Shown here: positions 11,762 to 14,746 of the stretch, piece by piece
How positions within the stretch are numbered: the stretch's first letter is position 1
How the letters are laid out: each line of letters starts with the position of its first letter
Assembly (NCBI GenBank): GCA_050692175.1
Contig: JBOGTG010000148.1
Coordinates: forward strand, 322 to 64,321
Source: Candidatus Limnocylindria bacterium
GTDB lineage: Bacteria > Chloroflexota > Limnocylindria > P2-11E
Length of the DNA: 64,000 bases
Direction: 5' to 3'
The notes under the pieces: generated by a model
What the model was told of the DNA's origin: nothing
The model's database searches: none
What the model saw: the letters and a program-made list of their open reading frames with translations, nothing else
Translations under genes and position numbers: made by a program

Positions 11762-14746
11762 GTGATCGAAGAACCAAAGAACGAACGCGTGATCGGCGTC
11801 GAGCTCGAGCACGAGATGCGCCAGGCCTACCTCGACTACTCGATGAGCGTGATAGTCGCGCGCGCGCTTCCCGATGTCCGCGACGGACTCAAGCCGGTAC
11901 AGCGTCGGATCCTCTACACGATGCTCGAGGAAGGCCTGCGTAACGATCGGCCGTTCCGCAAGTCAGCGAATGTCGTCGGCGTGGTGATGGCGAAGTACCA
12001 CCCTCACGGCGACGTGCCGATCTACGACGCTCTCGTTCGGCTCGCGCAAGACTTCGCGGCGCGATACCCGCTCGTGCAGGGGCAAGGGAACTTCGGCTGC
12101 TTCACCGGCGAGACAAAGGTGGAGCTCTACAGCGGCGAGCAGAAGCCCTTCACCGAGCTCGTCGAGATGGCGCACAAGGGCCTGCGCGCCGAGATCTTCA
12201 CGGTCGACCCGCACCGGAACGTACGGATCAAGCCGCTGCGCGCGCCCCGCCTCGTCCGACGCAACGACCCCGTCGTGAAGGTAACCCTCGAGTCGGGGGC
12301 CGAGATCGTCTGCACCCCAGACCATCGGTTCATGCTCCGCGACGGGACCTATCGCGAGGCGCAGCAGCTCAAGGCGAAAGACCAGCTCATGCCCTTCTCC
12401 CGGAGCGCCATCCCCGAGCGCTTGCACCGGACCGGGGCCTTCCCGATCCCTGCGAGCCTGACCCAGAAGGTGAGCAAGGTCGAGCCCGCCGGCCGCGCGG
12501 ACGTCTACGACCTCACGGTCGACCTCACCCAGAACTTCGCTCTCGGCGCCGGCGTGTTCGTCCACAACTCGATCGATGACGACCCGCCCGCCCACATGCG
12601 CTACACCGAGGCTCGCCTCGCCGCGATCTCGACCGAGATGCTCGCCGACATAGAAAAGGAAACGGTCGACTGGATGCCGAACTACGACAACCGGCATCAG
12701 CAGCCGACCGTCCTGCCCGCGCGGATCCCGAACCTCATCGTGAACGGGTCCGCTGGCATCGCGGTCGGCATGGCCACCAACATCCCGCCGCACAACCTGC
12801 GCGAGATCGTCGCCGCCACCAAGCGGCTCATCGACGACCCCGAGCTGACCACCGATGACCTCTGCGAGACCGTGATCGGTCCCGATTTCCCGGGCGGCGG
12901 CGTCGTCTACCGGTTCGACGAGCAGCGCAACGTCGAGACGGGCGCCGCGGAGCGAGTCGACGCGATCCGCAGGGCCTACGCGCAGGGCCGCGGGCGCATT
13001 GTCGCCCGCGCGAAGGCCCACAACGAGCAGCTTCGAGGCAGCCGCGACGCCATCATCGTGACCGAGCTGCCCTACGCGGTGAACAAGGCCTCACTCATCG
13101 AGAAGATCGCAGACCTCGTGCAGAACAAGAAGCTCGCGGGCATCTCGGACATCCGCGACGAGAGCGACCGTGATGGCATGCGCATCGTCATCGAGATCAA
13201 GCGCGACGACGACGCCACCCTCGTCCTGAACAACCTCTACAAGCACACGGCGATGCAGTCCGCATTCAACTTCAACATGCTCGCGCTCGTCGACCAGCAG
13301 CCGCGAACCCTTTCGCTCAAGGAGATCCTCCAGCACCACATCGACCACCGACGCGGGGTCATCCGGCGACGCACCGACCACGACCTTCGCAAGGCGAAGG
13401 AGCGCGCGCACATCCTCGAGGGCCTCAAGATCGCGCACGATCACATCGACGAGATCATCAAGCTCATCCGGGCGCATAAGGGCCAGGAGGCGCTCCTCGT
13501 GGGCAAACTGCGCGAGGGGTTCGGGCTCACGGAATTGCAGGCCAAGGCAATCCTCGAGATGCAGCTCCGCCGGCTCTCCGGTCTCGAGCGCCAGCGGCTC
13601 GACGACGACTACCGCGAAACGATCAAGCTGATCTCCGAGCTCGAGTCGATCCTCGCGAGCCCCCGCAGGATTCTGTCTCTGATCAAGCTGGACCTCGACG
13701 AGATCGCCACGAAGTACGGCGACGACCGCCGCACGGAGATCGTCGACGACACGCCACGGCAGCTCTCTGCGGAGGAGCTCGTCGCCGACGAGGACGTCGT
13801 GATCACCGTCTCGAGCCGTAACTACGTGAAGCGCATGCCGCTTTCGACCTATCGCGCGCAGCACCGTGGAGGGCGCGGCGTGATCGGAATGGCGACGCGC
13901 GACGAGGACGACGTCGAGCACCTTGTCGTCGCGCGCAGCCACGATCGCCTCTACGTCTTCACCGACCGTGGCCGCGTCTTCGCTCTGAAGGTGTTCGAGC
14001 TTCCAGACGCGAGCCGGACCGCGAAGGGGACGCCGATCCAGAACATCCTCGAGGCCATGCAGGCCGGCGAGCGCGTCTCGGCGCTGGTCGCGCTCCGGGA
14101 CACGACCTCGACGGAGCACCTCGTGATGGCGACCCGCAAGGGCTTCATCAAGAAGACGCCCCTCTCCGAGTACGCGAATGTCCGGCGCGCCGGGCTTATC
14201 GCGATCGCCCTTCGCAAGGGCGACCAGCTCGCGTGGGTCGCACCCTGCACGTCACAGGACCGCATCCTTCTCGCCACCAGGAAAGGCAAGGCAATCACTT
14301 TCAAGGCAACCGACGCCCGGCCGATGGGACGGCAAACGCAGGGAGTCACCGGCATCCGGCTTCAGAAGGGCGACGAGGTCGTTGGTATGGGCATCGCCCG
14401 GCCTCGGACCGAGGCGCTTTCCGTCACGGAGAACGGTTTTGGAAAGCGCACCGCCGTCGCCGAATTCCCGACGCAGGGCCGCGGGGGCCAGGGCGTGATC
14501 CTCGCCGCCCTCTCCCCCAAGACCGGGAATGTGGCCGCGATCCAAATGGTCGACGAAGGCACTCAGGAGATCCTCCTCATCACCTCCAACGGTGTTGTGA
14601 TCCGAACCCCGGTCGAGCAGGTGCGTGCCCTCGGCCGCGCCACGATGGGCGTGAAGGTCATGTCCGTTGGAGAGACGAAGATCGCGTCGATCGCCACATT
14701 CACCCCGACGCGGCCGGCGCAAACGCAGCTCGATCTACCTCGCTGA
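11762..14746 (+). CDS. gyrA: DNA gyrase subunit A, interrupted by a mini-intein
   Basis: Conserved GyrA motifs are present ([23 protein letters not shown], catalytic [10 protein letters not shown], GyrA-box QHRGGRG, C-terminal beta-pinwheel repeats). 994 aa including a 157-aa insertion. Confidence 0.95.
12098..12568 (+). mobile_element. mini-intein (Hint domain, no homing endonuclease) within gyrA
   Basis: The extein context is GQGNFG | CFTGETKV ... TPDHRF ... [22 protein letters not shown] | SIDDDPP. Excising 12098..12568 restores the conserved GNFGSIDxDPP motif. The insert has Cys1, the block B TxxH, a terminal HN and a +1 Ser. Confidence 0.85.

Follow-up and report, generated by a model that had tools for sequence, protein, structure and literature searches.

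A 157-residue mini-intein in DNA gyrase subunit A of Candidatus Limnocylindria at a site distinct from that of the mycobacterial GyrA inteins

The gyrA gene in a stretch of 64,000 nucleotides from a soil bacterium of the Chloroflexota, Candidatus Limnocylindria (contig JBOGTG010000148.1, positions 322 to 64,321; the whole stretch is called the window below) is interrupted by an in-frame insert of 157 codons at 12098..12568. We propose that the insert is a cis-splicing class-1 mini-intein which has lost its endonuclease and has been inherited vertically, at a fixed length of 157 aa, under purifying selection of the strength that acts on GyrA. We put the probability of this reading at about 85%. 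All coordinates are those of the window, and all features described lie on the forward (+) strand. Taken as an intein, the element is unremarkable: it belongs to the standard class-1 mini-inteins, its host protein is known to harbour inteins, and many public genomes have an intein at the same place. An endonuclease-free intein that is fixed across a class, is constrained as strongly as gyrase and carries an invariant linker of non-catalytic appearance is nevertheless a candidate for conditional splicing.

Evidence for a mini-intein in gyrA

The interrupted gene is recognized as gyrA by two NCBIfam equivalog models, both scoring over their cut-offs (NF004043, 1091.9 bits; TIGR01063, 1054.9 bits), and by Pfam, which finds the DNA_topoisoIV domain and six DNA_gyraseA_C beta-propeller blades in its product. 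The precursor open reading frame (ORF) extends over 11762..14746, with a GTG start predicted in the ORF listing, and encodes 994 aa including the intein, of which 837 aa would remain after splicing. Read directly from the gene, the N-extein of 112 aa (11762..12097) ends at GNFG. It is followed by the insert, a putative class-1-type mini-intein made up of a HINT domain only (12098..12568; 471 nt, in frame and free of stop codons), whose 3′ end encodes GAGVFVHN. The C-extein reaches from there to the stop codon (12569..14746), as delimited by the ORF listing, Pfam and NCBIfam. Removal of the 471 nt in silico gives an 837-aa GyrA with a continuous conserved motif. The intein-free homologues P0107-P0120 read GQGNFGS[IVML]D[GD]DPPA.MRY at this place and match the spliced product; at the nucleotide level, the intein-free gyrA target at the junction, here and below marked by a slash, is GGNAAYTTYGGN/TCN... 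A preliminary description of this DNA had placed a 157-aa in-frame mini-intein at exactly these coordinates, with exactly these residues, and had stated that its excision restores the GyrA motif. Both statements hold.

A search with Hint-domain hidden Markov models, which the same description had proposed as a check, gave scores above the curated cut-offs for three intein models: Pfam Intein_splicing PF14890 (59.9 bits against a cut-off of 35.8, E 3e-16), TIGR01445 intein_Nterm (46.2 against 24.5 bits) and TIGR01443 intein_Cterm (24.5 against 15.6 bits). The Protein Data Bank (PDB) sequences matched by the insert in phmmer are all inteins, with Npu DnaE first (1.8e-5) and NrdJ-1, RadA and Ssp DnaE after it. 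An AlphaFold2 model, for which 44 aligned sequences served as input, shows one HINT domain consisting almost entirely of beta-strands, with a mean predicted local distance difference test score (pLDDT) of 94.3 and a predicted template modelling score (pTM) of 0.87. With this predicted structure as query against the PDB, Foldseek returned the Npu and Ssp DnaE, Npu and Ssp DnaB and Mtu RecA mini-inteins at a probability of 1.00, with template modelling (TM) scores of 0.75-0.84 and root-mean-square deviations of 2.2-3.0 Å. The profile matches and the modelled fold confirm the insert as a HINT-domain mini-intein, the match being far beyond chance. Pfam and NCBIfam detect the splicing domain only and no endonuclease domain in the insert, whose 157 aa leave no space for one; it is indeed too short for a homing endonuclease, as had been supposed.

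The essential residues of a class-1 intein are all found (C1, T73 and H76, D138, H156, N157 and S+1), and they are the same in 66 sequences of the lineage, comprising the window and 65 public Limnocylindria-type loci. Four of these features, namely Cys1, the TxxH motif, the C-terminal HN and the +1 Ser, had been listed in the preliminary description and can be read directly in the sequence. The block A nucleophile Cys1 is encoded by the TGC codon at 12098..12100 and is identical in 66/66 sequences. Block B, Thr73-Pro-Asp-His76, occupies 12314..12325; T73, D75 and H76 are likewise identical throughout the 66 sequences, and H76 is also unchanged in the wide 44-sequence alignment A2. Sequence comparison places block F at residues 135-147 (12500..12538), starting with D135 and holding the conserved Asp138, which is invariant. 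Block G, GVFVHN (12551..12568), was located with TIGR01443 and by alignment and contains the penultimate His156 and the terminal Asn157. The first residue of the C-extein and putative second nucleophile is the Ser encoded by the TCG codon at 12569..12571, read directly from the sequence; the +1 residue is Ser in every locus with a resolved junction. The block F His of relatives (HNF) is replaced by Gln145 (codon 12530..12532 by sequence comparison) in the window and in nearly all members of the lineage. Such a His is not universal among active inteins, and position 145 may be dispensable within the Limnocylindria lineage. It is occupied by Gly in L034 and by Ala in L046.

The closest solved structures are those of the Npu and Ssp DnaE, DnaB and RecA mini-inteins (4kl5, 1zd7, 4o1r, 3ifj), which share the HINT horseshoe fold with the window intein (TM 0.77-0.84) at about 20-24% identity, together with the order of the blocks and the block F/G string VYD..V...HNF....G....N. 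Their host proteins and insertion sites are different. The DnaE inteins are naturally split and have a +1 Cys. The window intein is contiguous and has Ser at +1, and where Npu DnaE is split its loop exceeds that of Npu by about 17 residues. The top NCBIfam model for the intein alone is RtcB_rel_intein2 (NF052663), with 99 bits over intein residues 1-101; its whole-protein cut-off of 1050 bits is not reached because the host is GyrA and not RtcB. P0096, a related mini-intein of RtcB, shares 41% identity with that of the window. The intein of the RtcB-related proteins differs from the window intein in the host protein and in having a +1 Cys.

Splicing by class-1 inteins proceeds through an N-to-S acyl shift, a transesterification, Asn cyclisation and an O-to-N shift. 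In the GyrA precursor, Cys1 would carry out the N-to-S acyl shift at the Gly(-1)-Cys1 bond, aided by Thr73 and His76. The +1 Ser would then attack the thioester to form a branched ester. Cyclisation of Asn157 with the help of His156 would release the intein of about 17 kDa, and an O-to-N shift would restore the peptide bond between GNFG and SIDDD. Under this proposal the intein has to remove itself from the precursor before gyrase can work, and splicing would be obligatory. The purifying selection described below would likely act because a non-splicing copy inactivates an essential enzyme, and the intein would persist because only its precise deletion is tolerated. The absence of an endonuclease would leave it immobile, homing being no longer possible.

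The insertion site and its occupants

The intein interrupts GyrA between the Gly that ends GNFG and the Ser that starts SIDxD, at a point 12 residues upstream of the catalytic Tyr (codon 12602..12604). In E. coli this Tyr is, as we take it, residue 122, which would place the junction at G110/S111. The classical mycobacterial GyrA inteins, such as those of Mxe and Mle (allele GyrA-a), directly follow the catalytic Tyr (MRY/TEAR). In the window the MRY/TEAR site is uninterrupted, and the classical Mxe-type site directly after the Tyr codon is empty. The Mxe GyrA intein of Mycobacterium xenopi (PDB 1am2, 4oz6) resembles the window intein in its host protein, its Cys1, its terminal His-Asn and its location near the catalytic Tyr, and its structure chains are likewise small (199-202 residues). 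It is inserted 12 residues further downstream, however, and has no detectable sequence relationship to the window intein: 1am2 is absent from the phmmer matches of the mini-intein among PDB sequences at E<=0.01, and it ranks 35th among the Foldseek matches of the model (TMq 0.62). Membership of the window intein in the classical Mxe-type allele was rejected, since the site differs and sequence homology to the Mxe intein fails.

Separation of the two sites is directly visible in related genomes. Ten of the 65 public Limnocylindria-type loci (L019, L030, L033, L035, L036, L040, L041, L043, L045 and L051) contain a second intein of 423-424 aa at MRY/C...SHN/TEAR, 12 residues or about 36 nt past the mini-intein. 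It starts with C[VLIT]TGDTLV and carries a LAGLIDADG_3 domain (54.2 bits), and the copy in L019 matches 1am2 at an E value of 8e-48. The preliminary description had stated that the junction lies 12 residues N-terminal of the catalytic Tyr, unlike the Mxe site, and looks like an independent insertion site. This is correct as judged from the aligned sequences: the two gyrA sites are distinct, 10 relatives hold both inteins, and the site used in the window is independent and occupied by an intein unrelated to that of Mxe. Natural alleles with two unrelated inteins 12 residues apart offer a ready system for studying interference between neighbouring inteins. The same double arrangement is seen in the protein fragments P0007, P0019 and P0046 and in the distant P0217 and P0234.

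Other occupants of the GNFG/S site were collected by a scan of one genome per GTDB species for two patterns, [QDN]GQGNFGC across the junction and [DN]HRFM[LM]RD inside the intein. The scan yielded at least 599 stretches, of which at least 557 were confirmed as relatives; the intein-internal pattern also matches related inteins in other hosts, so that the latter figure is not a count of same-site alleles. Eighty loci were kept. In the 65 of Limnocylindria type the intein is always exactly 157 aa long and 71-99% identical to that of the window. The remaining loci with the same junction carry inteins of 139-184 aa; their bacterial hosts are Patescibacteria (Paceibacterota, Saccharibacteria), Ktedonobacterales and another Chloroflexota genome, and their archaeal hosts are Thermoplasmatales, Methanosarcinales, Woesearchaeota and one unclassified archaeon. 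Identity in the alignment of same-site inteins (A1) is 44-85%. Five gyrA-intein regions (L008, L010, L012, L042 and L045) are 81-97% identical to Limnocylindria ones, but their contigs are assigned to Binatota, Udaeobacter, Bathyarchaeia, Acidiferrales and Saccharimonadales metagenome-assembled genomes (MAGs), probably through mis-binning and not through transfer.

A protein search gave dozens of GyrA fragments with GNFG/CF. Those that are 82-97% identical come from Chloroflexi and Candidatus Limnocylindria MAGs, and those that are 45-52% identical from Deltaproteobacteria, Omnitrophica, Latescibacteria, Giovannonibacteria, Ktedonobacterales, Woesearchaeota and Euryarchaeota. Several of the proteins, among them P0059, P0068 and P0072, are named "intein-containing DNA gyrase subunit A" by NCBI. 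The same-site inteins, which also include P0036 (199 aa, from a Deltaproteobacteria MAG) and P0044 (238 aa, Woesearchaeota), share the frame GNFG/CF[TS]G[DE]TK ... [VI]FVHN/S[IV]D. Their splicing blocks are homologous to those of the window intein at 44-54% identity, and Cys1, HN and the +1 Ser are common to both. Those of other phyla differ in having other linkers or a central insert of 40-240 aa, and His in HNF in place of the window's Gln. A library of 1.84 billion representative proteins holds 4023 relatives of the intein at E<=0.001. Many of the top relatives in that library are very long and have 4-9 matching stretches (P0121, 2039 aa with 8; P0135, 3009 aa with 9), and these are probably hosts of several related inteins.

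Full-size alleles exist at the same junction. P0198 has an intein of 353 aa in a complete GyrA of 1158 aa, and P0217, which also has the second intein, one of 394 aa. The P0198 intein is 49% identical to that of the window over residues 1-102 and 69% identical over residues 119-157, with about 210 extra residues in between; since homology is confined to the two sides, the difference in size corresponds to a central insert. In the full-size alleles this insert measures about 210-240 aa. In P0198 it contains the motif RHHxDFNxLNNxPxN and repeated W.DP.YR modules, and the Pfam model HNH_3 matches the central inserts below its threshold (13.9-18.9 bits against 24.8). The insert is probably an HNH-type endonuclease by these sequence features. 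A further same-site intein, of about 390 aa, is found in the low-GC gyrA of L081 (612..3118), where an apparent frameshift divides the gene into two called ORFs with an overlap at 1595 (ATGA). This interruption lies inside the central insert and could be a frameshift in the assembly, a sign of a decaying intein or a truly split gene.

The alignments indicate that the window intein is a minimised member of an established allelic family at the GNFG/S site. We propose that this family occupies one gyrA site across bacterial and archaeal phyla and that the Limnocylindria copy has lost the central insert. The novelty implied by the preliminary description was therefore overstated: at least 78 of the 80 kept loci, spread over many phyla of both domains, show the junction, as do dozens of proteins in databases. 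The term "naturally minimal" does not fit either, as same-site alleles of 139, 141 and 145 aa and solved mini-inteins of about 137-144 residues are smaller. The practical value attributed to the intein for protein engineering has likewise to be reduced to that of one more Cys1/Ser+1 mini-intein, neither the smallest nor characterised.

Full-text literature searches found no paper describing the GNFG/S site, and their hits for "GyrA-b" were unrelated. The name GyrA-a is used for the Mxe allele (PMC5050341). A census by Novikova et al. (2016), whose main text gives no insertion sites, counts 50 GyrA inteins in Actinobacteria, Aquificae, Chloroflexi and Proteobacteria (PMC4760082) and may include the GNFG/S site. 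GyrA occurs in two other papers in references or general tables only (PMC3359363, PMC5874633). As far as found, the GNFG/S allele is public but apparently carries no name in the literature. The present analysis documents a second intein site in gyrA, at G110/S111 in the E. coli numbering assumed above, of which no discussion was found in the papers searched.

Inheritance within Limnocylindria and the invariant linker

The 66 sequences of the lineage were used to compare the evolution of the intein with that of its host protein. Ratios of nonsynonymous to synonymous divergence (dN/dS) were calculated pairwise by the Nei-Gojobori method for the 51 sequences in which both regions could be used (1275 pairs), the flanking extein being represented by 100 codons upstream and 212 codons downstream. 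The median dN/dS, an approximate value, is 0.188 for the intein and 0.196 for the flanking extein, and the median dN is 0.127 in both. Between the window and its closest loci, dN of the intein is 0.008-0.019 at a dS of about 0.5. Distances in the intein follow those in distal GyrA (residues +120 to +420 after the intein) with a Mantel r of 0.72, and none of 2000 permutations was as high. The mean p-distance of the intein is lower than that of distal GyrA (0.175 and 0.219, respectively). The GC content of the intein is 0.67-0.70 and that of the rest of gyrA 0.62-0.70, with no discontinuity; composition thus gives no evidence of recent transfer. These comparisons indicate long vertical inheritance of the mini-intein under strong purifying selection. 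The Mxe-type LAGLIDADG intein is patchy (10/65 loci), in contrast to the constant 157-aa mini-intein.

A search of relatives for intein-free alleles had also been suggested. Intein-free homologues do exist (P0107-P0120), but no intein-free close relative was seen: among the fragments from the protein search, none that closely matched both flanks was free of the intein.

Several points weigh against the reading of a splicing, endonuclease-free and vertically inherited intein. The splicing chemistry is read from conserved residues and a predicted fold. With Gln145 in place of the block F His, C-terminal cleavage may be slower or differently assisted. Synonymous divergence is near saturation for most pairs, which makes the dN/dS values approximate. 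The genome scan picks only loci that bear the junction, so that fixation in the class refers to the lack of intein-free alleles among the close relatives seen. The HNH_3 match lies below the threshold, and the endonuclease of the full-size alleles can for this reason be called only probably of HNH type.

A linker of 15 residues ending in IPA or VPA spans residues 105-119 (12410..12454) of the intein, at the position of the central insert in full-size alleles. Apart from an exchange of Ile and Val at residue 117, it is identical in 66/66 sequences. Its mean amino-acid entropy is 0.04 bits, as opposed to 0.97 bits at its third codon positions, the latter being the highest of the segments examined. 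The linker is more conserved than the catalytic blocks and the neighbouring GyrA extein, the amino-acid entropy of which is 0.28-0.41 bits. The high variability of the third codon positions shows that the constraint acts on the peptide and not on DNA or RNA. On the same ground, an overlapping gene or a signal contained in the RNA or DNA was rejected as the explanation. In the AlphaFold2 model, residues 107-110 of the linker form a short helix, and the linker is the least confident stretch, with a pLDDT of about 80. Its placement, taken from sequence alignment, is at the loop of the natural split point of Npu DnaE; in DnaE intein structures this loop is away from the splice junction. Inteins at this site in other phyla lack the linker motif, as do related mini-inteins in RtcB, GyrB and other hosts; in all of these the corresponding segments are short and variable. 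A similar string, AIPERLARRRG..F.P, is found near the end of the central insert of the distant large intein P0213, which suggests that the linker may be a retained structural remnant. Its role would be either a folding need of the minimised HINT domain or a functional surface.

The second of these roles leads to an alternative in which the intein splices but has also been co-opted, either through a linker that makes the supply of gyrase dependent on a signal (redox state, temperature, DNA or a partner protein) or through a function of the excised 157-aa protein. Invariance of the linker among sequences that diverge down to 71% identity, with free third codon positions, speaks for co-option, as do an entropy below that of the adjoining extein and even of the catalytic blocks, the lower divergence of the whole intein compared with distal GyrA, the probable location of the linker away from the splice junction, and the fact that neither the inteins at this site in other phyla nor related inteins in other hosts have the motif. 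Domestication, if true, would explain a conservation at least equal to that of GyrA across the whole class. The argument is nevertheless one from conservation patterns, and the linker could simply be a structural plug that lets the HINT core fold after loss of the insert; the similar string at the end of the insert in P0213 points to such a remnant, and model confidence is lowest at the linker. We consider co-option unlikely and prefer an endonuclease-free intein retained for splicing.

That the insert is a dead relic which no longer splices, and which GyrA tolerates or which sits in a non-functional gyrA copy, is very improbable. The loss of the block F His, the absence of an endonuclease and the predicted nature of splicing itself would be compatible with it. 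However, the nucleophiles and the catalytic residues of blocks B and G are intact and invariant, and dN/dS, at about 0.02-0.19, is the same as in the extein. Drift or indels would be expected in a relic, yet the length is 157 aa in 66/66 sequences. The insert moreover splits the conserved GNFG-SIDxD 12 residues before the catalytic Tyr, and the rest of gyrA is intact, with full equivalog scores and no paralog within the window.

A recent horizontal acquisition that is still mobile in the Limnocylindria lineage scarcely deserves credence: occupation of the same site in very distant phyla of both domains does require deep horizontal transfer, and full-size alleles with a putative endonuclease exist, but the Limnocylindria copies lack an endonuclease, are constant in length and host-like in composition, follow distal GyrA in their distances, and contrast with the LAGLIDADG intein, whose patchy distribution is the pattern expected of a mobile element.

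Neighbouring genes

In the window gyrA is preceded by gyrB (9038..11224) and an ORF of 188 aa. A phmmer search against all six-frame ORFs of the window found no second gyrA or parC and no further intein. The 188-aa ORF (11182..11748, +) overlaps the end of gyrB by about 40 nt. GyrB contains, at approximately residues 600-670 of 728, a low-complexity insertion of about 70 residues that is rich in Lys, Ala, Asp and Glu; it is not an intein and is located just before YKGLGEM.

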